Assembly (NCBI GenBank): GCA_037441775.1
Contig: JBBIRO010000013.1
Span: 1 to 60,692, forward strand
Direction: 5' to 3'
DNA: 60,692 bases
Source of the DNA: Syntrophobacterales bacterium
Lineage (GTDB): Bacteria; Desulfobacterota; Syntrophia; Syntrophales; CAMTWB01
The notes under the pieces were generated by a model. The model was given only the letters and a program-made list of their open reading frames with translations, was not told the origin of the DNA and searched no databases. Positions 1-60,692 of this stretch are shown here, one piece after another; the first letter of the stretch is position 1; each line of letters begins with the position of its first letter. Both the position numbers and the translations under genes were made by a program.

Positions 1-71
1 GCGATGCGGGATTCGAACCCACGACCTCTGGTTCCGGAGACCAGCGCTCTATCCTGCTGAGCTAATCGCCC
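1..71 (-). tRNA. tRNA-Arg (anticodon CCG), 3' end cut by window edge
   Basis: The reverse complement reads GGGCGATTAGCTCAGCAGGATAGAGCGCTGGTCTCCGGAACCAGAGGTCGTGGGTTCGAATCCCGCATCGC. The anticodon stem is CTGGT/ACCAG with loop CTCCGGA (CCG). The T-arm is GTGGG-TTCGAAT-CCCGC. The last acceptor bases lie outside the window. Confidence 0.85.
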
Positions 72-380: not shown

Positions 381-468
381 GCCTGGGTGGCGGAATAGGT
401 AGACGCAAGGGACTTAAAATCCCTCGGTCCTTGAGGCTGTGAGGGTTCGATTCCCTCCCCAGGCACCA
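381..468 (+). tRNA. tRNA-Leu (anticodon UAA), long variable arm, CCA encoded
   Basis: The acceptor GCCTGGG pairs with CCCAGGC. The anticodon stem is AGGGA/TCCCT with loop CTTAAAA (UAA). The variable arm is CGGTCCTTGAGGCTGT and the T-arm is GAGGG-TTCGATT-CCCTC, followed by ACCA. Confidence 0.9.
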
Positions 469-15467: not shown

Positions 15468-16220
15468 ATGGAGAAAATAGCCAGGGAAAGATTGGATAGG
15501 CTTCTGGTTAATATCCAGGCGGCGCGGGACATTCAAAAGGCTAAGGCGTTGATTATGGCCGGCGTGGTGCTGGTGGATGACAGCAGGATTGATAAACCTG
15601 GTGCCCTCGTGCCGCTAACCGCCGTCATCAGGGTTCTGGGAGATGTGAATCCCTATGTCAGCCGCGGCGGATTGAAACTCAAGGGAGCCATGAAGAGTCT
15701 GTCTGTCGATGTGCGGGGCTTGACGGTTCTTGATGTCGGAGCCTCCACCGGCGGCTTTACCGACTGCCTGCTTAAGGAAGGTGCAAAACTGGTGTACGCC
15801 CTGGACGTGGCTTACGGTCAGCTTGCCTGGGAGCTTAGATCCGACAGCCGGGTGGTGGTTATCGAAAGGACAAATATCCGTCATTACGACGGCAGGGAGA
15901 TAACCGGGCCGGTCGATTTGGTCACCATAGATGTATCCTTTATTTCTCTCAAGGTTGTGATTCCGTCGGCACTGCGGTTCGTAAGGCCCGGAGGAAAGAT
16001 TTTAGCGCTGATCAAGCCTCAGTTCGAGGCCGGCCGAAAGGAAGTTGAAAAAAGCGGGGTGATCAGGGATCACGCCGTCCACCGGCGGGTCAGCGAAGAA
16101 ATTATTGAATTGATCAGCGATTTGGGTCTTAAATTCATGGGAACTTGCGAATCGGCGATTGTTGGCCCTCAGGGCAACAAGGAATTTTTTATTCTCGCCC
16201 GGGTCCCAGGGGAAAGATGA
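15468..16220 (+). CDS. tlyA: TlyA-family rRNA 2'-O-methyltransferase
   Basis: 250 aa. An S4-like N-terminus ('RLDRLLV') is joined to an FtsJ-type SAM motif 'VLDVGASTGGFTD'. Confidence 0.85.
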   Translation: MEKIARERLDRLLVNIQAARDIQKAKALIMAGVVLVDDSRIDKPGALVPLTAVIRVLGDVNPYVSRGGLKLKGAMKSLSVDVRGLTVLDVGASTGGFTDCLLKEGAKLVYALDVAYGQLAWELRSDSRVVVIERTNIRHYDGREITGPVDLVTIDVSFISLKVVIPSALRFVRPGGKILALIKPQFEAGRKEVEKSGVIRDHAVHRRVSEEIIELISDLGLKFMGTCESAIVGPQGNKEFFILARVPGER

Positions 16221-17962
16221 TGGATATTGCTCCTTTAGGCGTCAGGTTGGCAAAAACGGCGGGCTTCTGCATGGGAGTTAAGCGGGCGGTGGATATGGCC
16301 CTCGATATGTCCCGGCAAAAACGTTATGGTCGCGTCTGCAGCTATGGCCCGTTGATCCACAACCCCCAGACCATGGAACTCCTCAAGGCTCAGGGGATAA
16401 CGATTCTCAATGACCTCGCGCCGGTTAAGGGAGAGGATGTTGTGATCATCATCAGGGCGCACGGAATCGCCCCCGCGGAGAGAAAGAAGATCGAGAACAT
16501 GGGCTTCGAGGTGCTCGATGCCACCTGTCCGCGGGTGGCCCATGTGCAGGCCATAATCCGGAAGCACTCGAGAAACGGCTATGATATTGTCATTGTTGGA
16601 GACCACGACCATCCCGAAGTTAATGGGCTGATTGGGTATGCCGAAGGGCGGGTGATGGTAATAAGCGGTCGGGAGGGGGTGGCGGGCCTGCCGGAGACAG
16701 GCCGGTTGTGCGTAGTCGCCCAGACTACCCAGGATGTAGAGCAATACAACGAGATAATCAGTGAAATAAAATTGAAGCATCGTGACGTCCGTGCCTTCGA
16801 CACCATCTGTGATTCTACCGCCAAGAGACAACAGGAAGTATGCACCCTGGCCAAAGAGATGGAAGCCATGATTATCGTGGGCGGAAAAAACAGCGCCAAT
16901 ACCAAAAGGCTGGCCGAACTTTGCGAAAAAGAGGGGGCGGATACCTTTCAAATCGAAACAGCCCTCGAATTAGACGACAAGAAGATGGGCGCCTATAAAA
17001 AAATTGGTATTTCCGCCGGGGCATCCACGCCGAACTGGATCATTGATCAGGTGATGGACCGGGTTGTATCCACGCACCAGACAGGAAATCTGAATTTGCG
17101 GTCTTTACTTCGACTCTGGGTATGGTTAATCAATAATGACATCTATGCCGCAATAGGAGCCGCCGCGCTGACCCTGGCCGGGGCCACGTTAATTGGCGCC
17201 CGGATCAGCGCGCCGGTTCTCCTTGTCGCCTCCCTGTATGTTTATGGGATGCACACCCTCAATCGCCGTATCAATAGTCGGATCAGCGGTGCTCCTGGTT
17301 CGCCTGCCGGCGATCTGCACTCCGGGCGAGACAGAGGCTGCCTTTTTTTCTCCCTGGCTGCGCTGACAACCTCGATGGTTATTGCTTTATTCCTCGGCAG
17401 CGAGTCTTTTTTGCTGTTGCTCGCCATTTCCCTTATGGGCGTGTTGTATCATGTGCCGATCTTCCCCGCTGTTTTCAGGTTCAGGAGCATCAAAGATATA
17501 GCCGGCTCGAAAAATGTATCCATGGCGCTGGCCTGGTCTACGGTGGCCGTGGTACTGCCTGGCCTCCAGCAGGAGGTGATCTCGCTTGCGGCGGTTGTCG
17601 TTTCATTTACGTTTGTCACCTATATCGTCTTCAGCAGATCGGTTATTTCAGATATCTGGGATATCCAGAGCGACCGGCTCAAGGGCCAGGAAACCATGCC
17701 GGTGGTGCTGGGAATCGATTCTGTCCGCCGCCTGATTTTAATCCTTTCACTTCCCGTACTCTTCTTGGTTATTGGGGCGGGATTAGCCGGCCTGGTTCCC
17801 GGGCTCTCCTTTTATCTTGCGGCTTGTCTTTTTTATGTATGGATTTGTTTGAGGCTTTGTGATAGAGCGCTCAACATTTCAAACTTCGTTATGGAAGGCC
17901 TGCTGGAAACAAATTATTTTTTGGCGGGCTTAGTGACGCTGATGTGGCTTTACTTTGCCTGA
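16217..17962 (+). CDS. ispH: 4-hydroxy-3-methylbut-2-enyl diphosphate reductase (IspH) fused to a C-terminal UbiA-like polytopic membrane domain
   Basis: The start ATG 16217 overlaps the tlyA stop (ATGA). The N-terminal ~285 aa is IspH ('AGFCMGVKRAV', 'ATCPRV', 'GGKNSANTKRL', 'GASTPNW'). The C-terminal ~300 aa is hydrophobic and carries 'SDIWDIQSDRLKGQETMPVVLG' (UbiA motif 2). Confidence 0.8.
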   Translation: MMDIAPLGVRLAKTAGFCMGVKRAVDMALDMSRQKRYGRVCSYGPLIHNPQTMELLKAQGITILNDLAPVKGEDVVIIIRAHGIAPAERKKIENMGFEVLDATCPRVAHVQAIIRKHSRNGYDIVIVGDHDHPEVNGLIGYAEGRVMVISGREGVAGLPETGRLCVVAQTTQDVEQYNEIISEIKLKHRDVRAFDTICDSTAKRQQEVCTLAKEMEAMIIVGGKNSANTKRLAELCEKEGADTFQIETALELDDKKMGAYKKIGISAGASTPNWIIDQVMDRVVSTHQTGNLNLRSLLRLWVWLINNDIYAAIGAAALTLAGATLIGARISAPVLLVASLYVYGMHTLNRRINSRISGAPGSPAGDLHSGRDRGCLFFSLAALTTSMVIALFLGSESFLLLLAISLMGVLYHVPIFPAVFRFRSIKDIAGSKNVSMALAWSTVAVVLPGLQQEVISLAAVVVSFTFVTYIVFSRSVISDIWDIQSDRLKGQETMPVVLGIDSVRRLILILSLPVLFLVIGAGLAGLVPGLSFYLAACLFYVWICLRLCDRALNISNFVMEGLLETNYFLAGLVTLMWLYFA

Positions 17963-47453: not shown

Positions 47454-49528
47454 GATTCTTCCTTTTTAGACTCGGCGATGATCTTCTCGGCAATAAAGGG
47501 CGGCACCTCTTCATAGTGCGAGTGGGTATAGGTGAAGTTCCCCCGTCCGCTGGTCATGGAGCGCAGGTCGAGAGCGTATTTCAAGAGCTCGGCCAGCGGG
47601 GCCTGGCCCTTGATGATCTGGGTGGTTCCCCGGCTGTCCATCCCCATGATCCGGCCGCGCCGACTGTTCAAATCGCCGATAACATCGCCCATGTTCTCTT
47701 CCGGAACTTCAATATCAACAATAACGATTGGCTCCAAAATAGTGGGCTGGCAATCCATCACCCCTTTTTTGAAGGCCATGGAGCCCGCTATTTTGAAGGC
47801 CATTTCCGAGGAATCTACCGTGTGGTACGAGCCATCGACGAGCGCAACCTTTACATCGACCACGGGATAGCCCGCCAGAACACCCTCCTCCATGGCCTCG
47901 ACAATTCCTTTTTCCACGGCCGGCCGATACTGCTGGGGGATAACGCCGCCCACAATCTTATCGACAAACTCAAAACCGCCACCCCGGGGCAGGGGTTCAA
48001 TATCCAGCCATACATCGCCAAACTGGCCGCGGCCGCCGGATTGCTTCTTGTACTTGTTGTGGACATTTGTCTTGCCCTTGATTGTTTCCAGATAGGGCAC
48101 CTTGGGTGTTTTCAGGATCATTTCCACGCCGAATTTTCGCTTGATCTTTTCGACGACAACTTCAATGTGAACCTGGCCCATTCCGGAGAAAATTATCTCC
48201 TTGGTCTGGGTTCCCCGTTGCAGGGAGAGGGTGGGGTCCTCCTCGATCAGTCGTTGGATGGATGAGACGATTTTATCCTCGTCGCCACGGACTTTTGCCT
48301 CCACGGCAAAAGACATGATCGGCGGCGGCGCGGTCAGTCGCGGAAAGATGATTGGCGTTTTCTCCTGACAAAGGCTGTCGCCGGTGGTTGTTTCCTTTAA
48401 TTTTGCAACCGCGGCAATATCGCCCGGAATCAGTTGATCCGTCGGTTTCTGGCCCTTGCCCTCGAGATAGAAGACGTTGCCGAATCTCTCGGTTATTTTA
48501 CGCGATGAGTTATAAAAACTCCCATCCGGCCTGATACTGCCGGAATAGACTCGAAATAATGTCAGCCGTCCCGCATAGGGGTCGGCTATGGTTTTAAAAA
48601 CCAGGGCGGAAAAGGGGGCGCTTTCCGTCGGGAGGCGCCTTTCTTCCTTGTCGTCTTTCAAACCACAAATTTCGCCACGGTCAACCGGCGAGGGGAGGGT
48701 ATTGACGATCAGGTCAAGGAGAGTTGAAATGCCGATACCTTTAGTTGCCGAGCCGCAAGCGACCGGCACCAGCGCTCCTTTTATTACCGCCGCCCGCAGC
48801 CCTTTCTTGAGATCTTCCAGGGAAAGTTCGCCGTCGCTTAAGTAACGATCCATGAGTTCTTCATCTGCCTCGGCAATATCCTCCACGAGTATTTCCCTGT
48901 ATTTTTCGCACTCGGCAAGCATATCCCCCGGAATATCAATCTTTTTGGGCGCGCTTTTGAAGTCTTCAAAAATATAGGCTTTCTTTTCCAGCAGGTCAAT
49001 TATGCCTTTAAACGACGCTTCCCTTCCGATCGGCAGATTAAGCACGGAAATCTTGGCGTCAAAGTTTTTCCTGATGCTGGCCAGAGCCGTGTCAAAATTG
49101 GCGCGCTCCCGGTCCATCCGGTTAATATATAAAATGCGGGGAAGCTGGAATTCATCAGCGTAGCTCCATACCTTTTCCGTCTGAAACTCGACTCCGGAAA
49201 CGGCATCGACCAAAATAAGCGCGCCATCCACCACCCGGAGGCAGTTTTTAGTATCAAAGGAAAAATTCAAATCCCCCGGCGTGTCAATGATATTGATTTT
49301 GTGTTTATCCCATTCCACGAAGTTGGCTGCGGCCGATATGGATATGCGTCTCTTCTGTTCCTCGGGCTCAAAATCCATTGCTGCTGATCCGTCATCGACC
49401 CGGCCCAGGCGGTCATTCTTGCCGGTAAGAAAAAGAAAGGCTTCGGCCAGCGATGTTTTTCCCGTACTGCCATGCCCTACCAGGGCGACGTTTCTCAAAT
49501 GGGTGGACTCAAATTTAGACATGAACAC
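47450..49528 (-). CDS. elongation factor G paralogue (EF-G-II-like)
   Basis: 692 aa with G1 'GHGSTGKTS', G3 'DTPGDLNF', 'NRMD', and domains II-V ('YKKQSGGRGQFGDVW'). It is not in an str/rps context. Confidence 0.85.
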   Translation of the reverse strand: MFMSKFESTHLRNVALVGHGSTGKTSLAEAFLFLTGKNDRLGRVDDGSAAMDFEPEEQKRRISISAAANFVEWDKHKINIIDTPGDLNFSFDTKNCLRVVDGALILVDAVSGVEFQTEKVWSYADEFQLPRILYINRMDRERANFDTALASIRKNFDAKISVLNLPIGREASFKGIIDLLEKKAYIFEDFKSAPKKIDIPGDMLAECEKYREILVEDIAEADEELMDRYLSDGELSLEDLKKGLRAAVIKGALVPVACGSATKGIGISTLLDLIVNTLPSPVDRGEICGLKDDKEERRLPTESAPFSALVFKTIADPYAGRLTLFRVYSGSIRPDGSFYNSSRKITERFGNVFYLEGKGQKPTDQLIPGDIAAVAKLKETTTGDSLCQEKTPIIFPRLTAPPPIMSFAVEAKVRGDEDKIVSSIQRLIEEDPTLSLQRGTQTKEIIFSGMGQVHIEVVVEKIKRKFGVEMILKTPKVPYLETIKGKTNVHNKYKKQSGGRGQFGDVWLDIEPLPRGGGFEFVDKIVGGVIPQQYRPAVEKGIVEAMEEGVLAGYPVVDVKVALVDGSYHTVDSSEMAFKIAGSMAFKKGVMDCQPTILEPIVIVDIEVPEENMGDVIGDLNSRRGRIMGMDSRGTTQIIKGQAPLAELLKYALDLRSMTSGRGNFTYTHSHYEEVPPFIAEKIIAESKKEES

Positions 49529-49860
49529 TCCTTTCCGGTCTGATAAAGCAGAAATAACACTGATACGGAAGGCTTACTAGCCCATTTATGAATTTTAAGT
49601 CAAGGCAATAATTGATGCCGGTAGCGTATCAGTCGAAAAAACGGTAATTCATAAACGCTCGGCTTTTCCTCCGGCGGCCGTACCGAGTCTTACGTTTCAA
49701 TGACCCTTTACACAGCCGTAAATGATTGACGGCAAGGGCAAGGATTCGGTCTTGCGTGGCGGCGGCTCATTGTGGTATCAGCACAAGCCGGGAAGGCCCG
49801 CTCTCCCTTGGCGGGATCTGGCAGTCTCACATTGTTACACTTAAGCGGGAAATTTGTGAC

Positions 49861-50229
49861 ATGAATAATGCAGACCTCCCAGCCAATGATATTTCCTGGC
49901 ACGAAAAGAATGGCCGCCTGCTTGCCTTGATCAATGAACGCAAGCTTGACGACGCCCTGGAAGCAGGCCAGGAGCTTCTCGATTACGTTGATAAAAAGTA
50001 CAAGAAGGACGCCCGGGAAAAGGCCACCGCGTACAACAATGTTGGAATGGCCTTTCTTATTGCTCGCCGCTTCAATCTTGCGGAGGAATGCTTTCGCGAG
50101 GCGCTGGCCATGAGAAAACGGCTTTTCGGCGAGAACCATAACGAAGTGGCGGTGGTGCTTCTTAACATGGTTTGGCTTTACAAGGTTCAGGCGCAGGAAA
50201 TCCTTGCTGTAAATATCGTCGAGACATGA
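49861..50229 (+). CDS. small TPR-like repeat protein
   Basis: The start is ATG 49861. 'ATAYNNVGMAFLIARRFNLAEECFREALAMRKRLFGENHNEVAVVLLNM' looks like TPR_10/12-type repeats. The upstream part of the track ORF has no coding-like features. Confidence 0.5.
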   Translation: MNNADLPANDISWHEKNGRLLALINERKLDDALEAGQELLDYVDKKYKKDAREKATAYNNVGMAFLIARRFNLAEECFREALAMRKRLFGENHNEVAVVLLNMVWLYKVQAQEILAVNIVET

Positions 50230-50843
50230 CGAACTTCAAGCGAGAGGGGCTTTTGCCTTTTTACATGCTAAGCCGGCAATTGTGCGGCAGTGTGAAATTT
50301 TCACTACGAAGGTCTAAACAGCAATGTTTATTGCCACAGTTGCCCGTTTGCGGCACTTGACGTTGGTTAATGACCGTAAAAAAAACTTGACATTAATTAT
50401 TTTTCTTGAGATTGCGTAATAACAAAAGCGGCGATTTTCCGTGTCGGTTTTCAACAGGAACAGCAGTTATTGAAAACTGCATGTTTAGATGGACGCGCGC
50501 CAAGCGGCGAGCAGCGGCAAAAAACATGTGTAAATCCGTTGAAAAAGACCAGAGCGGTTGCATCGAGCCAACTCAGGCGCGTGGCCTGTGCGTCAAACAC
50601 ATAACGAGTCCAGTTGTATTCCCAGGGTCTTTTACATTAACTTACTCTTTGATAACTTCGAAAAAGTCCGATTTACCCTCCCCGGGTGATGGGGATAAAG
50701 GTAATAATTGGTGTTTGGCAGCCAGGATTTGGAACCCCTTACATTGCGCGGGGCGATAAAGAGGGCGGTGGATATGAATATCCATATATCGACGATTATC
50801 AGCATCGCCAGACGCTTCTCTCCTCAAGGGAGAGGGATCTTTT

Positions 50844-50859
50844 GACTTTTTAAGAAGTT
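50844..50859 (+). repeat. copy of the dispersed motif (GACTTTTTAAGAAGTT)
   Basis: It lies 38 nt upstream of the tpsB start and is preceded by the hairpin CTCTCC-tcaag-GGAGAG. It overlaps a TTGACT -35-like hexamer. Confidence 0.5.
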
Positions 50860-50897
50860 GTCCGAGTTAACAGTCAATCTATCTATACAAGGAGGTC

Positions 50898-52637
50898 GTG
50901 GTGAAAAATCCCATTTTAAAGACAATGGCGCTGGCCCAGATTTTTCTATTTGCTGTTTTTATTCAGGTAGCCTGGTCCCAAGCCATTCCCCAGCAGGGGA
51001 AACCAGGCGCGGTGGAAAGGTCTCTCCAGCAGCGACCAGTCCAGGAGCCGACCAGACTTCCGGAGATCGTGATACAGGAGGACGGCACTCCCCGGCTGGG
51101 TGACGGCAAGGTGAGGTTCCAACTGAAGGAACTGATCTTTGATGACAACTTGATATTTTCAGTGGAGAAACTGCGCGCCGTGGTGGCTGAGCACATCGGC
51201 AAGACGATCGAGGTTGGGAAGCTGGCCGAGATTGCCGATGCCGTCACCATGCATTATAGAAGGGAAGGATACTTCCTGACCCGCGCCTATATCCCCCCGC
51301 AGACGATCAAGGACGGAAGGGTTCAGATTAAGGTTCGGGAGGGTCGCCTGGGAGATATCATTATCAAGGGCAATGAGCGTTACAGCCGAGACCTGATTCG
51401 CAACACCCTCAAGATCATCCGCGGCGAGGGGGCGGTGCGCACCGCCGACGTAGAGCGCGCCCTCCTGCTTTTGATGGATGTTCCCGGTCTTAAGGTCAAG
51501 GCAACGTTTAAGCCCGGCAAACTGCCCGCCACGTCCGACATTGTGATTGAAGTCACGGAAGACCGCTTCTTCGGTTTTGGAGTCGATTACAACAATTTCG
51601 GCAGCCGTTACGTTTCCCAGGATCGCTTCGGTCTATCCTTCGATCTTTTGAGCCCGATGGGTATCGGCGAAACCCTGTCCATCCGCGCAGCCACCGGCAG
51701 CGAAGGTCCGGATAGCCTGTTCTACGGTCGGGGCGAATTTTCGCTGCCCATTGGTTACAGCGGCGCCAGGATCGGCGTCAATTACTCTGCGATGCAGTAT
51801 GAGATGATCGGTGACTTAAAGGCCCTCAAAGCCGGCGGCAAGTCCGACGGCGGCGGCGTCTGGTTCAGTTATCCGATTGTTCGTGGCCGCAACTGGAGCT
51901 GGTTTTTACAGACCGGGTTTGACGCCAAAAACGTTACCCAGGAGATTAACAAGCTCGATGTCGGCCGGGACAGGACCCGCCACGCCTATCTGGGCACCAG
52001 TTTCCACTGGGTTGACGTTTTGGACGGCAGCAATGCGATCAGCGTCAAGGGTTACCAAAGCTTCGCCAAAATATTCAACGGCCTTGATCAGGGCGACAAC
52101 AAGACCATCCGGCTTAACACCGACGTGATTTACAGCAAGCTGGAGATAGACGCATCCCGGATTCAGCGATTGCCATTGGGCAGTTCTTTGCTGCTCCAGT
52201 TGAACAGCCAGTGGAGCGGTGACCGCCTGCCATCCTCCGAGCAGTTTCATTTAGGCGGAGCGGGCTCAGTGCGCGGCTATGCCCAGGGTGAAAGAGCCGC
52301 TGACAGCGGCCTTGCGGCCACCGCCGAGCTGCGGTTTCCGATTCCGGGCGTAAGCGACATCCGCTTGGGTGCGGGCGGCAAGACCATTGGCGAAACGTTT
52401 CAGCTCGCCCTCTTTTACGATTACGGCAAGGGCTGGATCTCCAATGCCAAGCTCTGGGGCGAGCAGGCGCTTGATGAGTCGCTCCTTCAGGGCGCGGGCG
52501 CAGGTATCCGGTTTACCTACTCGCCCTATCTGCGGTTTAAAGTGGATTGGGCGAAATCGGTCGGCGGCCTGGTTCCGCAGCGAAGTTCGGATATGGAAAA
52601 CGGCGTCTGGTATGTCCAGGCGGCGCTTTCCTTCTAA
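50898..52637 (+). CDS. two-partner secretion outer-membrane transporter (ShlB/FhaC/HecB family TpsB)
   Basis: 579 aa. The signal peptide ends 'VAWS|QA'. A POTRA-like N-terminal region ('IKVREGRLGDIIIKGN') precedes a beta-barrel ending in the aromatic 'YVQAALSF'. The start is GTG 50898 or GTG 50901, after an AAGGAGG RBS. Confidence 0.85.
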   Translation: MVKNPILKTMALAQIFLFAVFIQVAWSQAIPQQGKPGAVERSLQQRPVQEPTRLPEIVIQEDGTPRLGDGKVRFQLKELIFDDNLIFSVEKLRAVVAEHIGKTIEVGKLAEIADAVTMHYRREGYFLTRAYIPPQTIKDGRVQIKVREGRLGDIIIKGNERYSRDLIRNTLKIIRGEGAVRTADVERALLLLMDVPGLKVKATFKPGKLPATSDIVIEVTEDRFFGFGVDYNNFGSRYVSQDRFGLSFDLLSPMGIGETLSIRAATGSEGPDSLFYGRGEFSLPIGYSGARIGVNYSAMQYEMIGDLKALKAGGKSDGGGVWFSYPIVRGRNWSWFLQTGFDAKNVTQEINKLDVGRDRTRHAYLGTSFHWVDVLDGSNAISVKGYQSFAKIFNGLDQGDNKTIRLNTDVIYSKLEIDASRIQRLPLGSSLLLQLNSQWSGDRLPSSEQFHLGGAGSVRGYAQGERAADSGLAATAELRFPIPGVSDIRLGAGGKTIGETFQLALFYDYGKGWISNAKLWGEQALDESLLQGAGAGIRFTYSPYLRFKVDWAKSVGGLVPQRSSDMENGVWYVQAALSF

Positions 52638-52684
52638 ATATCTGGCGGCCGGCGTCACCATCTCCTCGACGGAAAGGAAGCCTT

Positions 52685-52700
52685 GAATTTTTAAGAAGTC
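52685..52700 (+). repeat. copy of the dispersed motif (GAATTTTTAAGAAGTC)
   Basis: It lies 47 nt after the tpsB stop. It is part of a ~44-nt segment similar to the one upstream of tpsB. Confidence 0.5.
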
Positions 52701-52813
52701 GTTTTGCTTGGGCATTGGAGCCACAGAATGCGACAGAAATTCCCGGCGCCGGCCACAGGGCGCGGGCCATGGCAATTTTTGGATACCGTTAGTGACGCGC
52801 TTTGTCGCGCACG

Positions 52814-52879
52814 CCGGTTTGGAAATGGTTTTCCGCCGGTTCAATCCGGTGTTTTGACCGGTTCATTCTTGTGTTTTGA
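52814..52879 (+). repeat. three tandem 22-nt direct repeats in the tpsB-tpsA spacer
   Basis: The units are CCGGTTTGGAAATGGTTTTCCG, CCGGTTCAATCCGGTGTTTTGA and CCGGTTCATTCTTGTGTTTTGA. Units 2 and 3 match at 19/22 positions. Unit 1 is weaker. Confidence 0.6.
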
Positions 52880-52966
52880 AAGGTAACATCAAGAGCTGCT
52901 TGTTACTCATAAGATAAATAAAATACTGCTTAACGTTCCATCATAGAGTACGACAGGAGGTTAGTC

Positions 52967-55900
52967 ATGGCCAGTTTAAGTAGAAAAATCAGAAGGGCGC
53001 AGTTGAGGATCGTAAGGAAGGGCAGCAAATCCTTCAGCCTGGATCGCAGCGTCAGACGCCTGCGGAACATGGGCATGGGCTTAGGCGGTGCGCTGGTCAT
53101 GCTTTCGGTGCCGCAGGTTGCGGCGGCCCAGAGCGGCTTCACCCAGGAGACGGCCGGGAACACCACGACCTTCCACCAGACGGCCGACAAGGTCTTCAAT
53201 CAGGTGCCTAGTTACAACATAGGCGTCTCCGAGCTGCACCAATACCTGCAGCCACAGCGGAGCTCCATCTTCGTCCAGCGGGTCATGGGCGGGTCCTACT
53301 CCAGCATCCTGGGGCAGTTGATCGCCAACGGCCAGGTCTGGATCATGAACCCGGGCGGCGTCCTCATCGGCTCCCAGGCCCAGATCAATACCGCCGGCTT
53401 CATGGCTTCCTCGTTGGTTATGGATAGGGACGACTTCTTTGCCGGGCGCTACAACCTCCAGAGCGCCGGGCAGGACGGCTTCGTCATCAATCAGGGCACA
53501 ATAACCGTCAATAACGGCGGATACGCCATACTGGCCGGCGGCTCCGTGGTTAACAACGGTTACATCCAGGCGAACCTGGGCCAGGTAGTTTTGGCCTCCG
53601 GTCGCCGGATGACGATGGATTTCTCCGGCGACGGCCTCATCAACTTTGCCGTGGATGAGAAGCTTGCCGCGAGAATCACCGGTCCCGACGGGGCGGAAAT
53701 GACCTCCGCCGTCCTGAATGCGGGAACGATCAGGGCTAACGGCGGCCGGGTCACCCTCACGGGCCGGGCCGCGGCGAATGTTCTTGATTACGTCGTCAAC
53801 AACACGGGCGTCATCGAAGCCAAGGGCGTCATTGAAAGAAACGGCGAGATCATCCTGACGGGCGGGGACGCAGGCGCGGTCGTCAACAGCGGCGCATTGG
53901 ATGCGTCCAGTGACGTGGCCCAGGGCGGCGCGATCCATGTCCTTGGCGACACCGTCGCGGTGACCGGCGCGATAGACGCCTCAGGCGCCACCGGCGGCGG
54001 CACGGTCCTCATCGGCGGCGATTACCAGGGGAATAATCCGGCGGTCCAGAACGCCCGGGTGGCCTATATCGGCCCCGAGGCGGTCATCAGCGCCGACGGC
54101 GGCGCGGGCGACGGCGGGAAGGTCATCGTCTGGGGCGATGAAGCGGCGGGCATCTTCGGGACAATCAGCGCTACAGGCGCGCAGGGTGGTTTTGTCGAGA
54201 CTTCCAGCGCGGGGATTCTGGAAGTGGGCGCGGCGTCTGTCCGCGCCGGGGAGTGGCTCATTGATCCGTACAATGTTACAATCACTAATAGCACAAGTAA
54301 CGGGACATATTCGGCCGGGGTTTTTACACCCAGCGGCAAGGATTCCAAAGTTGACGTGGCTTCCATCAACACATCCCTGAGCGGGGGGACATCGGTCACT
54401 ATCCAGACCCTCGGAAGCGGATCGGGAACGCAGGACGGGGACATTACCGTCAGCAAGGATATCGTGAAGAGCGGCGGCGGGACGGCCACCTTGACGCTCC
54501 TTGCCGCCGACGACATTGCCGTGAACAATCCCATTACCAGTACATCCGGCATGTTGAATGTGGAACTCCGGGCCAACTTTTACAATATTGGGGATCAGGA
54601 CAGTCGCGGCGGCGGTGATGTCAGTATTGGAAACGTGGCCATCACTACGAACGGCGGGTCTTTTTTAAGCTCAAGCACGGGCGCGGGCGGCGGAAATTTC
54701 ACGTCCAGCCCGGGCTCAAAGATCATAACCGGCGGCGGAGCCATTACCATCGACCACAGCAACAGCGGCAAGACGGTGAGTATCGGGGGCAACCTGACGG
54801 CGGGGGCGGGCAACATAGCGATTACCTCCGGGGGCGCCACCAGCATTACCGCGAGTCCCAAAGCAGTTTTTACCGCGGGCGATCTGACGATCACGGCCAC
54901 CGATATCGTGACCTTTGACAATATCGCAGACACAGGGCTTTCAGGAGTGACGGGCGCGATAACGCTGAGGCCTTCCGCGGCGGGATCAACGGTCGGCCTC
55001 GCCGGCGGGGCGGGGGCCTTCAGTCTTGACGCGAACGAGCTTTTGGTGCTGAAAAATTCGGGGGCGTCTTCCATCACCATCGGCCGCAACGACAGCACGG
55101 CATTAATGACCGTCGGCGGCAACGTTGATTTGACCGGCAGGAATGTGAGCTTCAATGCCGGTTCCTATTCCCAGGGCAATTTTGATGTGATCGCGGGGGC
55201 AGGCAACATCACCGTTGCTACCGATGAAATTGCGATAACGGCTAACACCGACAACAACGCCTTCCAGACCTCGGGCACGCTCACGCTTAGGCCATTGACG
55301 GCCTCGAAAACTATCGGCCTCGCGGGCGGCGCGGGGGACTTCAGTCTCGATGCGGCGGAAATAACCGCCATCTCAGCCGGGGCCGCTAATATCGTTATCG
55401 GCACCACCGGGGGCACCGGCGCCCTGACCCTGGGCGGCGCGGTAAATCTTGCCGGCACGAACCTCACCATCAACAGCGGACGGGTAAACGATGCTGTAAA
55501 CACGATCTCTGCGGGCACGCTGACCTTGAATCTGTCCTCCTCAACCGGCGGCAATGAAGTAAAGACCAATATCGGGACGTTGATTGCCAATACGACCTTA
55601 GGCACGACAGCGACCAACAGAGACCTGACCGTCACTGAAACAGACGCCATTATCCTCGGCAATATCAACGTGAACGACGGCGTCTTCACGCTCAATGCCG
55701 GCGGGGCGATCAGCCAGACCGGTACGATGAAGGCCGGGAAAGTGTCCTTAGGCACGACCGGCGCGATGAACTTGGGCGCCTTCGACGCCGGCGCAGGCGA
55801 TCTCACGCTCAAGGCGGATGACATCAATTTTACCGGCGGTGCAGGCTCGCTAAAGGGCACGGGCAATTTATATCTGCAGCCTTCCGCGGATAATAAGTCC

Positions 55901-58900
55901 ATTGATGTTGGCTTTAAAGGTACTGGCAACCTGGTGCTTGACGATGCCGACCTGGCCGCCCTCGCGCCAGGTTTCAGCGGCATCATCATCGGCAGCGCGG
56001 CGGGCACGCACGCCATCGTCGTGGATAGCGCCCTCTTCTCGAGCCCGGTGACGATCCAGGCCCCCTCAGGCGGGAGCATCACGATTCAGGATACCGACCC
56101 AGGCGTCGACTACGGCATCAAGAGTTCGGCCGCCGTCACCCTAATCGGCTCCGGCGCAACGACAAAGCTCTCGGCCGATATCATTACGCCGGGGGCTGCG
56201 ATCCTCATAAACGATTCGGTGCTGGTTGACGGCGTTCGCAGGCTCGATACGTCAAACGGCGCACTCGCGGCCGCCACCATCGAAATTACCAAAGGCATCG
56301 CCGGTTTCAATGCCGGCGGAACGGATACCTTAACGCTCGACGCCGCCACCGGCGCCGGGGCCGACGCCGCCGTAACCCTGGGCGGCAACGTGGCCGCCGG
56401 GGCAGTGGTAGGCGGGCAGAACCTCGAAGGCATCACCATCACCGGCTCGACGATTGGAGTTCAGAATATCGAGATTTCCGGCCCCATCGCCATTACCGGC
56501 TCGACGGTCGTCAACCTGAGCGGCGCAAGCTACAAGTCCACGGGAGATATTGGCATCAATTCCTACGGCGACCTCGTCGTCAACGGCACGGTTCGGACAA
56601 CCGGCGCGGCGAATACGATCTCTCTTGCTGCAGATTCTGAAGCCAACGGAACCGGGACATTGACCATTGGCGGTACGGCCAATGCGGTGGTTCGAAGCGA
56701 AGCGGGCGCTATCAATCTGACCGGCAGCGGCGTAACGATTGGTGCTGCTAACCAGGGCCAGATTGTCACTGCTGGCGGCGACATTACCGTTGCCTCAATT
56801 ACATCGGGCAAAACGCTTGCCGTTGGCAACGAAGCCCAGTTTGCCACCACCTTAGGCGGCAATGTTTATGTTACGGGCGCCAATTTCAGTACGGTGACCC
56901 TGGGGGCCTCGGCCACTCTGCCGCACAACATTGGTGGAAATCTTGTTATCGGCAACGGTACTGCGGTAGGCGGGGACGTCACCGTTAACGGTCAATTTGC
57001 GGGCGTCGGCGGGGCCATCACGGTAAAGGCCGACGGCGCGATCAACGTAAACAACAGTCTTTCCACCGTAAGCGGCGACATTACGCTCCGCGCGGATGCC
57101 GATGACAATGGCGCAGGAAACCTGAACATCGGTACGACTGCCGGCGCCAATATCACGATCAATTCGAGTTCCGGCGTAAAAGATATCGTTCTATATGGCG
57201 AAAACGTTAATGTTGCGACGGAGCGGAATGTGACGTTAAACGCTGGCTCAGGCAACATTACGCTCCACGCGGACATGAACGGCGGCGGTGGCGGCATCCG
57301 GATGGATGGAGTGCGCCTTACGATGGCCATGAACAATTTCTCTATTGATGCAGGAAATGCCCCGGACACCCTGTTGGTATCCGATACCGCCGCGGCCAAC
57401 ACAATTTCCGCTTCGGATCTGGCGAGCGCCACGGGTACGGTGACCCTGCGCGCCAATACCACGCTCACGGTAAGCGATAACCTCAGCCTCGGCGCCGGCA
57501 ATTTTACAGTGGGGGCGGGCACGGGCGGCACGCTTACGGCCACGCTGGCTGACGTGACGGCCGACGGCACGATTTCCATCGCGGCCAATACGATCAACCT
57601 CGCGGGCGCCACCTACACCAGCGCCAACGAAGCGCTTACATTTACCGGCCCTGTAAATCTGACGGCCGGCGCAGGAACCACGACCGTGACCAGCGGCGGC
57701 GGCAACCTGGACGACATAACCTTCACCGGCACGATTCAGGATGCGGGTAAGGACACGAAGCTGTCACTGAACGCGGGAAGCTCCGGCAATATCTACCTGC
57801 AGGGCGCGGTTGGCGGCGGCGGCAATAACATCGAGGCATTGACGGTATCGAACGCCCATACGGTCAATCTCGCCGACGTGAGTGTTGATGCGGCAATTAA
57901 TATTACTGCCGCGGGCGGCATCAATCTCAAAGGCGCAAGCTACGCCAGCACGGTCGGCGGCGCGATTACCTTCGCCGGCGCCGTGGAACTTGCCGCGGGC
58001 GCGACAACTACCGCCATTTCCACCGCGGGCGGCCTGGGCGATGACATCACATTCACGAGCACCATTCGCGACAGCGGGAAAAATACGACCCTCAGCCTTA
58101 AAGCCGGCCCGAGCGGCGCCATAGACCTGCAGGGCGCCGTAGGCGGCGGCGCAAACAACCCGGCGGCTTTGACCATTGTAAGCGCGGCCACGGCCTCCCT
58201 CAAGGATATCAGCGCAGAGGGCGCCATTGCCGTGACCGCCACGGCGATCAACCTGGCCGGTACGAACTATATCAGCAACGACGGCGACATTACTTTGATC
58301 GGCGCTGTCAATCTGACCGGTACCGGACTGGTGACCATCGGCAGCGATGGCAATAATGATGGGGTGGATGGCGCCATCACTCTGGGGGTCGTTACCGACC
58401 CCGGCGATAACTCCTCGCTCACCGTCAACGCCGACACCGCAACGGTAACGCTCGTCAACGTGGCGATTGACGGCGCATTCACCGTAACCGGCGGCGCCAT
58501 CAATCTGGGCGGCAGCTCCTACACCACGCGCCAGGGCAATATCGCCTTGAACGGCGCGGTGGATTTGATTGGTGCGGGTACAGTAACGATCAACTCCGAT
58601 TTTGATGCCGCCGGGGCAGTCGGCTCGATCAGCGTCAACGGCGCCGTGTCCGACATGGGAAACAACTCCGGACTTACCATCACGGCCAACACCAACACCG
58701 TGGGATTGGCCGATGTGGTCGTGAACAACGCCATTTCGGTGACGGGCGGCGCCATCAACCTCGGCGGCGCCGTTTACACCAGTACTAATGGCGCGATAGA
58801 CTTCAATGGCCCGGTGAACCTTTCCGCCGGGGCGGTGACCACCACGGTCACCAGCGGCGCGGCGGGGACGGCCATCACCTTCACCGGCACGGTAAATGAC

Positions 58901-60692
58901 GCCGCAAAGGATACGGATTTTGTGCTCAATGCCGGCGCTTTAGGCAATATAGAAATGAAGGATGCCGTGGGCGGCGTCAACGCGCTTAAGTCATTCCAGG
59001 TTTTAGACGCCAACGATGTATCGCTGCGCGCGGTGACGACGAACGCCGGGACGATTGCCGTTTCGGGTACGACCGGCGGGATGACCGCAGGCACCCTGAA
59101 ACTTTTCGGCAACCTCATCACCCATAATGGCGCGGGCGGCAATGCCGGGGCCATCAGCCTGAAGGCCAACAACATCCGTTTGGAGGCAGCCGGTGCTGCT
59201 GCGGGCAGCATCACCCTCGATACCAACGCTTCCGGCGCAGGCCTCGATAACGCCATTACCCTTGCCACGACCGGCACCCTGGCCAGCACCACGGCCTGGG
59301 AAGACGGCCTCATCCTCAATGCCGGATCAGGCGCAGTGGATATCAGCGGCGCGAAGCTGGCAAATCTCGATCATCTGGTGATCACCGGGGCCACGGCGAC
59401 GCTGGGAACCCTTACTGTGGGGGCTAACTACGTGGGCGCGGCAGGTGCGCTTCATGTCACAACAACTGTTGGCGCCATCACCCTTGTGGGCGACCTGGCG
59501 ACCACCGGCGAGGCCGACGCGGGCACCCTCACCCTCAACGCGGCCACGACGATCATCCTTGCCGACACAGACGGTACGGTAACCATAAACACCGACAAGG
59601 GTGTCGGGGGCAATGTCACCCTCGGCACAATCACGGACGACGGCTTCGACCGCAACCTGACCATCACTGCCGGCAGCGGTAATGTGACACTTGCGAAGGT
59701 GGGCGAGCATTTCGATGTCTTTCCCCCAGGTAAGGACTCAATCGGCGACCTGTCGGTCGAAGGTAAAATCATTAACTTTACCGGCGACGTTTATGCGAAA
59801 GGCATCTCCGCCTTTGGAGTTGTCGCAGGCGACAAGATCAACATAGGCAACGTATGGCTGGACGCCAATAACGGCAGTATGATCTTCCGGTCAGACGATA
59901 TCGCTATCGATTCCAATGCCCAGTTGAGAAGCAGCGGCGCTATTAGCCAGAGCGTCACCTTTGCCGGCCGGACGGACGCCACGACGATCGGCATCGGCGA
60001 CTCCGCCGCGGGCACCTTGAACTTAACCCAGGCGGAGCTTCAAACCGTTCATGAGTCATTTAGTGAAATCCGCGTCGGCAGGGACGGCAAACAGTCCGGA
60101 GATATCGAAGTCAACAATACTGGAGGGCTGACCGGCCTCTACACAACCCTGCGCCTGCGCGCCGAAACGGGCGGAGCCGATATAAAAATCAACAGTGCCA
60201 TCAACCAGACCACGGCGGGCGCCGGTTTCTATATCGAAGGATCGGGCAGCACCACCTTCCTGAATGCCGATATTAATACGAACGGCGGCGTTGTGGACAT
60301 TGACGACACCATCCTGGTGAACGGCCTACGCACCATCAGCACGGGCAACGGCGGCGACCCGGGCGGTAATATTACCCTTCGCAAGGCCATCGGTTCCGTG
60401 GATACGAGCGGGGATACCCTGACCCTGGATGCGCTTGGCGCGATTACAAACGGCGCTGTCAACGTGATCGGCAACGTGGGCGATGCCGCGGATACGATCA
60501 ACGGAGTGGCGGCAAATCAACTGACCGGCTTCACCATCAAGAACGCCACCCAGGTGGATGTGGCGAACGTATTCGTCACCGGCGGCGACATCTCCATCGC
60601 CGGCGCGAACATAGACCTCAATGGAACAACCTATCAGACGACGACGTCGGGCTCGATCACGTTTACGGGCGCGGTAAATCTGAAAAGCGCAG
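52967..60692 (+). CDS. giant TpsA exoprotein (filamentous haemagglutinin-like), 3' end beyond the window
   Basis: ATG 52967 lies 8 nt after AGGAGG. I read the frame codon by codon and found no stop in 2,575 codons. The TPS domain reads 'FVQRVMGGSYSSILGQLIANGQVWIMNPGGVLIGSQAQINTAGF'. Further on come 'GGKVIVWGD...GAQGGFVETSS...WLIDPYNVTI' and then G/T/N/A-rich beta-helix repeats. It is not in the ORF track. Confidence 0.9.
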   Translation, partial: MASLSRKIRRAQLRIVRKGSKSFSLDRSVRRLRNMGMGLGGALVMLSVPQVAAAQSGFTQETAGNTTTFHQTADKVFNQVPSYNIGVSELHQYLQPQRSSIFVQRVMGGSYSSILGQLIANGQVWIMNPGGVLIGSQAQINTAGFMASSLVMDRDDFFAGRYNLQSAGQDGFVINQGTITVNNGGYAILAGGSVVNNGYIQANLGQVVLASGRRMTMDFSGDGLINFAVDEKLAARITGPDGAEMTSAVLNAGTIRANGGRVTLTGRAAANVLDYVVNNTGVIEAKGVIERNGEIILTGGDAGAVVNSGALDASSDVAQGGAIHVLGDTVAVTGAIDASGATGGGTVLIGGDYQGNNPAVQNARVAYIGPEAVISADGGAGDGGKVIVWGDEAAGIFGTISATGAQGGFVETSSAGILEVGAASVRAGEWLIDPYNVTITNSTSNGTYSAGVFTPSGKDSKVDVASINTSLSGGTSVTIQTLGSGSGTQDGDITVSKDIVKSGGGTATLTLLAADDIAVNNPITSTSGMLNVELRANFYNIGDQDSRGGGDVSIGNVAITTNGGSFLSSSTGAGGGNFTSSPGSKIITGGGAITIDHSNSGKTVSIGGNLTAGAGNIAITSGGATSITASPKAVFTAGDLTITATDIVTFDNIADTGLSGVTGAITLRPSAAGSTVGLAGGAGAFSLDANELLVLKNSGASSITIGRNDSTALMTVGGNVDLTGRNVSFNAGSYSQGNFDVIAGAGNITVATDEIAITANTDNNAFQTSGTLTLRPLTASKTIGLAGGAGDFSLDAAEITAISAGAANIVIGTTGGTGALTLGGAVNLAGTNLTINSGRVNDAVNTISAGTLTLNLSSSTGGNEVKTNIGTLIANTTLGTTATNRDLTVTETDAIILGNINVNDGVFTLNAGGAISQTGTMKAGKVSLGTTGAMNLGAFDAGAGDLTLKADDINFTGGAGSLKGTGNLYLQPSADNKSIDVGFKGTGNLVLDDADLAALAPGFSGIIIGSAAGTHAIVVDSALFSSPVTIQAPSGGSITIQDTDPGVDYGIKSSAAVTLIGSGATTKLSADIITPGAAILINDSVLVDGVRRLDTSNGALAAATIEITKGIAGFNAGGTDTLTLDAATGAGADAAVTLGGNVAAGAVVGGQNLEGITITGSTIGVQNIEISGPIAITGSTVVNLSGASYKSTGDIGINSYGDLVVNGTVRTTGAANTISLAADSEANGTGTLTIGGTANAVVRSEAGAINLTGSGVTIGAANQGQIVTAGGDITVASITSGKTLAVGNEAQFATTLGGNVYVTGANFSTVTLGASATLPHNIGGNLVIGNGTAVGGDVTVNGQFAGVGGAITVKADGAINVNNSLSTVSGDITLRADADDNGAGNLNIGTTAGANITINSSSGVKDIVLYGENVNVATERNVTLNAGSGNITLHADMNGGGGGIRMDGVRLTMAMNNFSIDAGNAPDTLLVSDTAAANTISASDLASATGTVTLRANTTLTVSDNLSLGAGNFTVGAGTGGTLTATLADVTADGTISIAANTINLAGATYTSANEALTFTGPVNLTAGAGTTTVTSGGGNLDDITFTGTIQDAGKDTKLSLNAGSSGNIYLQGAVGGGGNNIEALTVSNAHTVNLADVSVDAAINITAAGGINLKGASYASTVGGAITFAGAVELAAGATTTAISTAGGLGDDITFTSTIRDSGKNTTLSLKAGPSGAIDLQGAVGGGANNPAALTIVSAATASLKDISAEGAIAVTATAINLAGTNYISNDGDITLIGAVNLTGTGLVTIGSDGNNDGVDGAITLGVVTDPGDNSSLTVNADTATVTLVNVAIDGAFTVTGGAINLGGSSYTTRQGNIALNGAVDLIGAGTVTINSDFDAAGAVGSISVNGAVSDMGNNSGLTITANTNTVGLADVVVNNAISVTGGAINLGGAVYTSTNGAIDFNGPVNLSAGAVTTTVTSGAAGTAITFTGTVNDAAKDTDFVLNAGALGNIEMKDAVGGVNALKSFQVLDANDVSLRAVTTNAGTIAVSGTTGGMTAGTLKLFGNLITHNGAGGNAGAISLKANNIRLEAAGAAAGSITLDTNASGAGLDNAITLATTGTLASTTAWEDGLILNAGSGAVDISGAKLANLDHLVITGATATLGTLTVGANYVGAAGALHVTTTVGAITLVGDLATTGEADAGTLTLNAATTIILADTDGTVTINTDKGVGGNVTLGTITDDGFDRNLTITAGSGNVTLAKVGEHFDVFPPGKDSIGDLSVEGKIINFTGDVYAKGISAFGVVAGDKINIGNVWLDANNGSMIFRSDDIAIDSNAQLRSSGAISQSVTFAGRTDATTIGIGDSAAGTLNLTQAELQTVHESFSEIRVGRDGKQSGDIEVNNTGGLTGLYTTLRLRAETGGADIKINSAINQTTAGAGFYIEGSGSTTFLNADINTNGGVVDIDDTILVNGLRTISTGNGGDPGGNITLRKAIGSVDTSGDTLTLDALGAITNGAVNVIGNVGDAADTINGVAANQLTGFTIKNATQVDVANVFVTGGDISIAGANIDLNGTTYQTTTSGSITFTGAVNLKSA
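57593..59080 (+). repeat. in-frame tandem repeat array inside tpsA (units of 109, 109, 84, 85 and ~109 aa)
   Basis: Units start at 57593, 57920, 58247, 58499 and 58754. Each begins I-N-L-x-G-x-x-Y (ATCAAYCTS...). Units 1, 2 and 5 form one subtype and units 3 and 4 form another. Confidence 0.75.

Follow-up and report, generated by a model that had tools for sequence, protein, structure and literature searches.

A TpsA/TpsB two-partner secretion locus with a giant, repeat-rich passenger in a Syntrophales-like anaerobe

To our knowledge, work on type Vb (two-partner) secretion systems has been confined almost entirely to pathogens. HMW1A of Haemophilus influenzae (PDB 2odl) needs HMW1C and is tethered to the cell surface, and HxuA (4i84, 4rm6) binds haemopexin. 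EtpA of enterotoxigenic E. coli (PDB 8vba/8vbb, 8cpk) adopts the shape of an elongated, three-sided beta-helix with repeat modules behind it, and its gene stands in the order etpB-etpA-etpC (PMC11463764). In the present work we have analysed a stretch of 60,692 nucleotides from a Syntrophobacterales bacterium (GenBank assembly GCA_037441775.1, contig JBBIRO010000013.1; referred to here as the window), at the right-hand end of which an initial annotation had placed tpsA, a gene for a giant two-partner secretion (TPS) exoprotein. The best-supported description of this locus is a type Vb secretion module made up of a small TPR gene, tpsB and tpsA (Table 1), and it is close to certain that a TpsA/TpsB pair is encoded. 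Residue numbers below are those of TpsA unless stated otherwise.

The initial annotation had assigned the N-terminus of TpsA to a TPS/haemagglutination-activity domain and had pointed to hidden Markov model searches and structure prediction as ways to check this. Searched with PF05860, the translated frame gave 78.6 bits against a cutoff of 33.5 over residues 52-310 (E 9.5e-22), and TIGR01901 'adhes_NPXG' gave 53.7 bits against 29.1 (E 1.4e-14), confirming the assignment. All of the motifs quoted earlier, GDGGKVIVW and GGFVETS among them, are present; NPGG is found at residue 128, GDGGKVIVW at 381, GGFVETS at 407 and WLIDP at 430, each of them on or next to a column that is invariant or nearly so in an alignment of 41 sequences, where N128 and G131 do not vary. 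In a PDB sequence search the strongest similarity was to EtpA (E 2.9e-67, query residues 52-655), followed by HMW1 (3.4e-37) and HxuA (7e-24), and no FhaB, CdiA or ShlA entry was among the matches. An AlphaFold model of residues 1-700, built on the same 41 sequences, was all beta from residue 58, with a predicted local distance difference test score (pLDDT) of 83.1 and a predicted template modelling score (pTM) of 0.83. When this model was compared with solved structures by Foldseek it matched EtpA with an E of 2e-28 and a query TM-score (TMq) of 0.72, and the EtpA TPS crystal structure with a target TM-score (TMt) of 0.89 and a root-mean-square deviation of 2.1 A; for HMW1 the TMt was 0.83. 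HxuA was significant over the TPS domain and weak overall (TMq 0.46). FhaB (1rwr) and HpmA reached only E values of about 1e-3, with HpmA at 2e-3 or weaker and a TMq of about 0.23, and CdiA was matched neither by Foldseek nor in the PDB sequence search. As judged by superposition of the model, residues 58-690 form a beta-helix that overlies EtpA. Since EtpA, HMW1 and HxuA match strongly and FhaB and HpmA only marginally, the TPS domain of TpsA is placed in the EtpA/HMW1/HxuA branch and not in the FhaB/CdiA/ShlA branch.

The frame that carries this domain was retranslated from ATG 52967 to the edge of the window and, as had been reported, its 2,575 codons hold no stop; re-reading of the 7.7 kb gave neither an in-frame stop nor a frameshift. 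About 82 stops would be expected from base composition (probability of none about 3e-36), and the remaining five frames hold between 34 and 207. The GC content at third codon positions (GC3) is 0.74, as is usual for coding sequence. External homologues span residues 1-1100 and 1500-2575 and internal repeats bridge the part between, which supports, as far as sequence comparison goes, a frame that is coding along its whole length. Open reading frames (ORFs) antisense to tpsA reach 305 residues and gave zero matches in a Pfam search. The mechanical ORF list had omitted tpsA, and the reason presumed in the initial annotation was correct, as that list leaves out ORFs that run off the source. The AGGAGG ribosome-binding site described there is also present, with a spacing to the ATG of 6 nt and not the 8 nt given. 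ATG 52967 is supported as the start, since DNA homology to a congener (metagenome-assembled genome, MAG, GCA_947085375.1; contig L010) begins at 52955, and since an unusual N-terminal extension, 'MASLSRKI..', is kept in relatives. The extension is common to the database relatives P0013, P0014 and P0016 and to L010, and it opens a putative extended signal peptide, read from the sequence, in which the hydrophobic core GLGGALVMLSV is followed by AAA/Q at about residue 54. The Pfam ESPR model did not match the N-terminus of TpsA, and in the AlphaFold model residues 1-54 are disordered (pLDDT below 50) apart from one short helix.

Behind the secretion domain the initial annotation had described more than 2,000 residues of Gly/Thr/Asn/Ala-rich repeats of a beta-helix type. 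The composition over the 2,575 residues (G 15.7%, A 13.2%, T 12.3%, N 7.8%, no Cys), the repetitiveness and the all-beta character were borne out, and a beta-helix could be recognized by superposition only in the EtpA-like part that ends at residue 690. Self-comparison revealed degenerate repeats all along the passenger, with paralogous modules at residues 662-732 and 769-838 (49% identity), 732-822 and 932-1019 (34%), and 1053-1140 and 2417-2502 (42%). The DUF5649-like module (Table 1) is one of several paralogous 'LxLxP...IGLAGGAG..L...EL' modules in residues ~640-1000; many TpsA relatives do exceed the PF18886 threshold, and the modules found here are at best divergent DUF5649 relatives. 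The literature counts DUF5649 among the stalk domains of fibrillar adhesins (PMC8286594). Further along the passenger lies a block of five tandem modules, of which units 2-4 at least are modelled with a long beta-hairpin near the start of the unit followed by short strands. A Pfam search with this block alone returned nothing at E<=0.1, and the module matched just 79 representative proteins at E<=1e-3 among 1.84 billion; the strongest of these matches were mostly giant proteins (up to 7,993 residues) carrying up to 29 copies. The ~85-110-residue module is a rare, uncurated repeat family. An AlphaFold model of residues 1500-2575, built on a 7-sequence alignment, was all beta bar one short helix (pLDDT 82.7, pTM 0.64), and on this model a beta-helix fold is likely in the distal repeats.

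Relatives of TpsA are numerous (1,428 at E<=1e-10, from 1,400 to 4,400 residues) and are annotated as 'filamentous hemagglutinin N-terminal domain-containing' or 'beta strand repeat-containing' proteins; in every relative examined tpsB lies directly upstream of tpsA. The N-terminal ~560 residues are kept in 115 of the 120 best matches at 35-58% identity, few relatives align past residue ~600, and residues ~1100-1500 are almost without an external homologue. For the passenger the best match had 48% identity over 29% of the query, and no close orthologue was found. Residues 1817-2575 align at 48% to residues 780-1555 of P0001 (Deltaproteobacteria RIFOXYD12_FULL_53) and residues 1668-2566 at 40% to residues 2071-2966 of P0003, and both of these proteins extend past the point that matches the end of the window. 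The tpsA gene of P0003 (Logan contig L013) is split into ORFs of 3,083, 121 and 2,512 residues, and since it totals ~5,700 residues, thousands of residues of TpsA may be missing from the window. The splits in P0003 (L013 19252-19700) are apparent frameshifts within repeats, either assembly errors or marks of a decaying gene. Many relatives end in a shared '..(I/V)x(G/S)xG(I/V)(K/R)(L/M)P..'-like motif followed by an acidic or Cys-containing tail, and no Pfam model covers this motif. Other assemblies of the same species break within tpsA, namely the 10-kb Logan contig L001 after 547 residues (with an identical TpsB) and the 26-kb Logan contig L020 after 381 residues (with a 99% LigA), which fits the repeats of the gene. 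A 99%-identical LigA is also encoded on an 85.6-kb NCBI contig, and the species is present in runs SRR11582157 and SRR11582139. A scan of GTDB species representatives gave no genome of this species (best match 62% over the N-terminus), and a scan of JGI metagenomes with the last 500 residues of the TpsA part in the window gave no relative.

By sequence the host is a Syntrophales/Smithellaceae-like member of the Desulfobacterota, and its LigA is 78% identical in the congener, 63-64% in the next Smithellaceae and 56% in Syntrophales. The initial annotation had called tpsBA the only clearly accessory locus of the window, and this view holds, as the rest is core (Dxs, IspH, MetRS, Tmk, HolB, XseA, ScpAB, LigA, EF-G and TRAP transporters among others) and the congener, which keeps the EF-G-to-LigA-to-TRAP synteny, has no tpsBA after EF-G and carries it on another contig, L010. 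The two TpsA proteins are ~90% identical up to residue ~300 and ~25% identical thereafter, with a sharp break of DNA homology just past the TPS domain (window 52967-53907 against L010 7616-8553). This comparison suggests that recombination has exchanged the passenger while the secretion cassette in front of it was conserved. The tpsB-tpsA spacer of the congener measures ~5 kb (L010 2626-7615) as compared with 329 bp here, and it is filled with small toxin-antitoxin-like cassettes, namely two pairs resembling HicA/HicB and one VapC-like PIN gene. Between them lie six copies of a 64-nt element that carries the hairpin GGTTCAATC..GATTGAACC, an arrangement that resembles a cassette array. The 23-nt core of this hairpin repeat is absent from the window.

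The transporter gene, described earlier as of ShlB/FhaC type and 329 bp upstream of tpsA, does encode a POTRA_2 domain and a ShlB barrel and ends at that distance. The signal peptide of TpsB ends ..AWS/QA at about its residue 26, and the loop-6 motif VRGY and the motif FYDYG follow at 457 and 505; Pfam resolves one POTRA region, and a second was not resolved. An exact-protein look-up returned no record for the product that starts at the listed GTG 50898 and only contig L001 for the product that starts at GTG 50901. Since the 578-residue product from 50901 is the protein on record, this is the likely start. TpsB is 100% identical on L001, 92% in the congener and 24-54% in other relatives, each adjoining its tpsA. 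The small TPR gene has homologues of 46-52% identity in five related Desulfobacterota loci (Table 1), where they are situated upstream of tpsB and oriented oppositely to it, and none was found beyond EF-G in the syntenic region of the congener. The TPR gene probably belongs to the tpsBA module, and its product may be an accessory factor or a regulator of the system. An Rfam search over 49500-53200 gave nothing even at E<=1. A terminator-like hairpin, TTCTCTCCTCAAGGGAGAGGG, with a T-rich tail occupies 50816-50836 (+) some 60 nt before the tpsB start, and DNA homology to the congener starts only at 50844, just past it. Hits resembling promoters and terminators were no more frequent than chance would give.

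Elsewhere in the window, a 605-residue ORF at 16145-17962 (+) matches IspH/LytB over its residues 33-307 and, more weakly, UbiA over 397-575, and may represent a gene fusion or else two genes joined in a single reading. At gathering thresholds Rfam detected two tRNAs only, one cut by the left window edge at 1-71 (-) and a complete tRNA-Leu(TAA) at 381-468 (+).

Table 1. Coordinates of the tpsBA locus and of related features; positions are those of the window unless a contig is named.
Feature	Position	Strand	Basis or remark
TPR protein, small, cytoplasmic, 122 aa	49861..50229	+	From ATG 49861 (mechanical ORF from 49726); TPR_12 E 8e-17, TPR_10
Non-coding tpsB leader, 671 bp	50230..50900	+	Hairpin 50816-50836; tpsB AGGAGG at 50890-50895
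tpsB, Omp85-family outer-membrane transporter, 578 aa	50901..52637	+	ShlB PF03865 E 4e-27, POTRA_2 PF08479 E 2e-15, Omp85
tpsB-tpsA spacer, 329 bp	52638..52966	+	AGGAGG at 52955-52960; no Rfam match
tpsA, first 2,575 codons of giant exoprotein	52967..60692	+	Open to window edge; 3' end beyond window
Extended signal peptide (putative, read from sequence), aa 1-54	52967..53128	+	Basic extension 'MASLSRKIRRAQLR..', hydrophobic core, 'AAA/Q'
TPS secretion domain, NPxG-type, aa 52-310	53120..53896	+	NPGG at aa 128-131; PF05860, TIGR01901, PDB sequence matches, model superposition
Family-conserved beta-helix extension, aa 311-560	53897..54646	+	GDGGKVIVW, GGFVETS, WLIDP; pLDDT mostly >85; aligns to EtpA to aa 655
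DUF5649-like stalk module, aa 885-957	55619..55837	+	PF18886 19.5 bits, below cutoff 25
Five tandem ~85-110-aa repeat modules, aa 1520-2010	57524..58996	+	Self-comparison, 37-61% identity between units; AlphaFold
Distal passenger, aa 2011-2575	58997..60691	+	Collinear with relatives that extend past this point
TPR homologues	L012 6926-7258; L004 9942-10295; L003 6098-6427; L008 1056-2755 (three copies); L011 3-161		
SapC-family genes	L012 22504-23250; L013 27843-28601; L017 18965-19693		Matching site here beyond window end
Relatives with shared C-terminal motif, examples	P0004, P0006, P0010, P0026, P0053, P0088, P0097; L013 26036-27235		

By analogy with characterized type Vb systems, TpsA would pass the inner membrane unfolded by means of its extended Sec signal peptide, and in the periplasm the POTRA domains of TpsB would bind the EtpA/HMW1-type TPS domain (residues ~55-310). 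The chain would then thread through the TpsB barrel, and the TPS domain would fold first at the surface and nucleate a very long beta-helical or all-beta fibre (vectorial folding); by analogy with filamentous haemagglutinin (FHA), the 2,575 residues in the window might by themselves make a rod of roughly 50 nm. The exposed passenger appears to be exchangeable, through recombination immediately after the conserved cassette. We infer that TpsA is secreted and displayed in this way, and that in this Syntrophales-like anaerobe the long fibre probably works as a fibrillar adhesin or matrix protein without toxic activity, serving in cell-cell or cell-surface attachment. An adhesin or matrix function is the most likely one because the solved relatives are adhesins, because Pfam adds no signal other than a stalk repeat, and because nothing toxin-like was found either in this protein or at the C-termini of the six complete relatives inspected. 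Some points weigh against such a function. No ligand-binding (adhesive) domain was identified in TpsA, and a search of solved structures with the model of residues 1500-2575 gave nothing significant, the best match being the S-layer protein RsaA at E 0.076. In TpsA proteins the functional tip is often the C-terminus; here this part lies past the window edge and was not recovered by exact-protein look-ups or from GTDB representatives or JGI metagenomes, and a minority of family members carry C-terminal caspase-like, CHAT or subtilase domains (P0060, P0066, P0118, P0112).

These last domains, being protease-like, also bear on the proposal that TpsA is a CdiA-like protein of contact-dependent inhibition (CDI), or another toxin-delivering TpsA, with a polymorphic toxin tip and an immunity gene just past the window. 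The order tpsB-tpsA is that of cdiB-cdiA, TpsA is giant, the exchange of passengers between the congeners recalls polymorphic toxin systems, and toxin-antitoxin-like cassettes lie inside the locus of the congener. However, the congener proteins diverge right past the TPS domain and not at the C-terminal tip, and the TPS domain itself is of the EtpA/HMW1/HxuA type. The initial annotation had pointed to FhaB/CdiA repeat and toxin models, and none of them match: over the entire 2,575 residues the FHA repeats PF05594 and PF13332 were not found at E<=0.01, and Pfam and NCBIfam gave no Fil_haemagg, VENN, toxin or enzyme model, with DUF5649 the sole extra Pfam signal. In the C-terminal 300-400 residues of six complete relatives no Pfam family scored above its curated cutoff. 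We therefore regard toxin delivery as quite unlikely. Much the same low probability is given to a glycoprotein adhesin like EtpA and HMW1, the folding and function of which would need a cytoplasmic N-glycosyltransferase of the HMW1C/EtpC type encoded downstream, as in etpB-etpA-etpC. EtpA and HMW1 are the closest solved relatives, the B-A gene order is as in etpBAC (PMC11463764), and the protein is rich in Asn, Thr and Ser, with 51 N-x-S/T sequons as compared with 39.7 +/- 5.4 in shuffled sequences. This excess is weak (z = 2.1), however, and the similarity to EtpA stops at residue ~655; moreover, a scan of the 50 kb upstream, covering its 40 largest non-overlapping ORFs, revealed no glycosyltransferase, and none adjoins tpsA in the six complete relatives.

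A ShlA/HpmA-type cytolysin, or an exoprotein of the HxuA type that captures nutrients (haem or haemopexin), appears very improbable. HxuA is significant over the TPS domain by both sequence and structure, and the Pfam family of the transporter is named ShlB, but the sequence similarity to HxuA is confined to residues 60-309 and the structural one is weak, the HpmA and FhaB folds are marginal, the known proteins have about 900-1,600 residues compared with more than 2,575 residues of repeats here, and the host is a relative of free-living anaerobes. Decay or misassembly is judged equally improbable. Such a pseudogene or mis-assembled repeat could account for the break of three assemblies of the species within tpsA and for the three ORFs of P0003, the closest long relative, but breaks at repeats are to be expected in assemblies, and the frame has run for 7.7 kb free of stops and frameshifts with the GC3 of coding sequence, shows protein homology to independent relatives at both of its ends, and is predicted to fold with confidence.

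A more far-reaching idea, which we hold to be doubtful, is that the locus represents a separate type Vb sub-system, shared by anaerobic Desulfobacterota and some sulfur-oxidising Gammaproteobacteria, in which a conserved cassette (TPR, TpsB, and the 'MASLSRKI' signal peptide with the TPS domain) would serve exchangeable giant passengers built of rare ~100-residue all-beta modules, often with a SapC accessory after tpsA. A gene of the SapC family (PF07277) immediately follows tpsA in three of six complete relatives (Table 1), and a TpsA relative occurs within 10 kb, up- or downstream, in 13 of 80 metagenomic SapC loci. SapC was rejected as a partner specific to TpsA systems, most SapC-family loci not adjoining TpsA genes, and a 243-residue gene after P0002 proved not to be SapC. 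For the SapC family no solved relative was found, and a literature search gave nothing. If such a sub-system does exist, in a syntroph its fibre could physically tether partner cells.

The locus leaves current understanding unchanged, and its value lies in a correct annotation and a few leads. It places a system of the EtpA/HMW1 type in an uncultured, Syntrophales-like anaerobe. Bacteria of this group depend for their way of life on close physical contact with partners, and a giant surface fibre would be a plausible attachment device for contact between syntroph and partner. The congener pair is a clean natural case in which the secretion cassette is conserved and the passenger has been swapped, and the recurring TPR and SapC neighbours are testable candidates for accessory factors.

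Among the known systems, EtpA is the best solved relative, and its genes share the B-then-A order. Unlike in the etpBAC locus, no EtpC/HMW1C gene was found in the scanned upstream ORFs or beside the relatives, and the passenger past residue ~655 is unrelated and longer (more than 2,575 residues as compared with about 1,760), with repeats of a different, uncurated family. The host is moreover an environmental anaerobe and not a pathogen, so that the ligands of EtpA (flagellin and blood-group A glycans) are not transferable. HMW1A and HxuA have the TPS-domain subtype in common with TpsA, but the likeness does not go beyond the secretion domain and the initial coils, and none of the features particular to either was seen here. 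With the FhaB/CdiA/ShlA-HpmA branch TpsA has a common pathway, that is a TpsB, an NPxG TPS domain and a beta-helical passenger, and FhaB and CdiA are giants of similar size; it differs from that branch in the marginal match of its TPS fold, in having no PDB sequence match there, and in having no Fil_haemagg, Fil_haemagg_2, VENN or toxin model in the part present. The true family of TpsA consists of uncharacterised giant MAG proteins, for example P0001, P0003 and P0014, all of which have tpsB upstream and whose Desulfobacterota members have a small TPR gene nearby. Within this family TpsA is an ordinary member of a widespread class of bacterial adhesins, carrying a rare repeat module.

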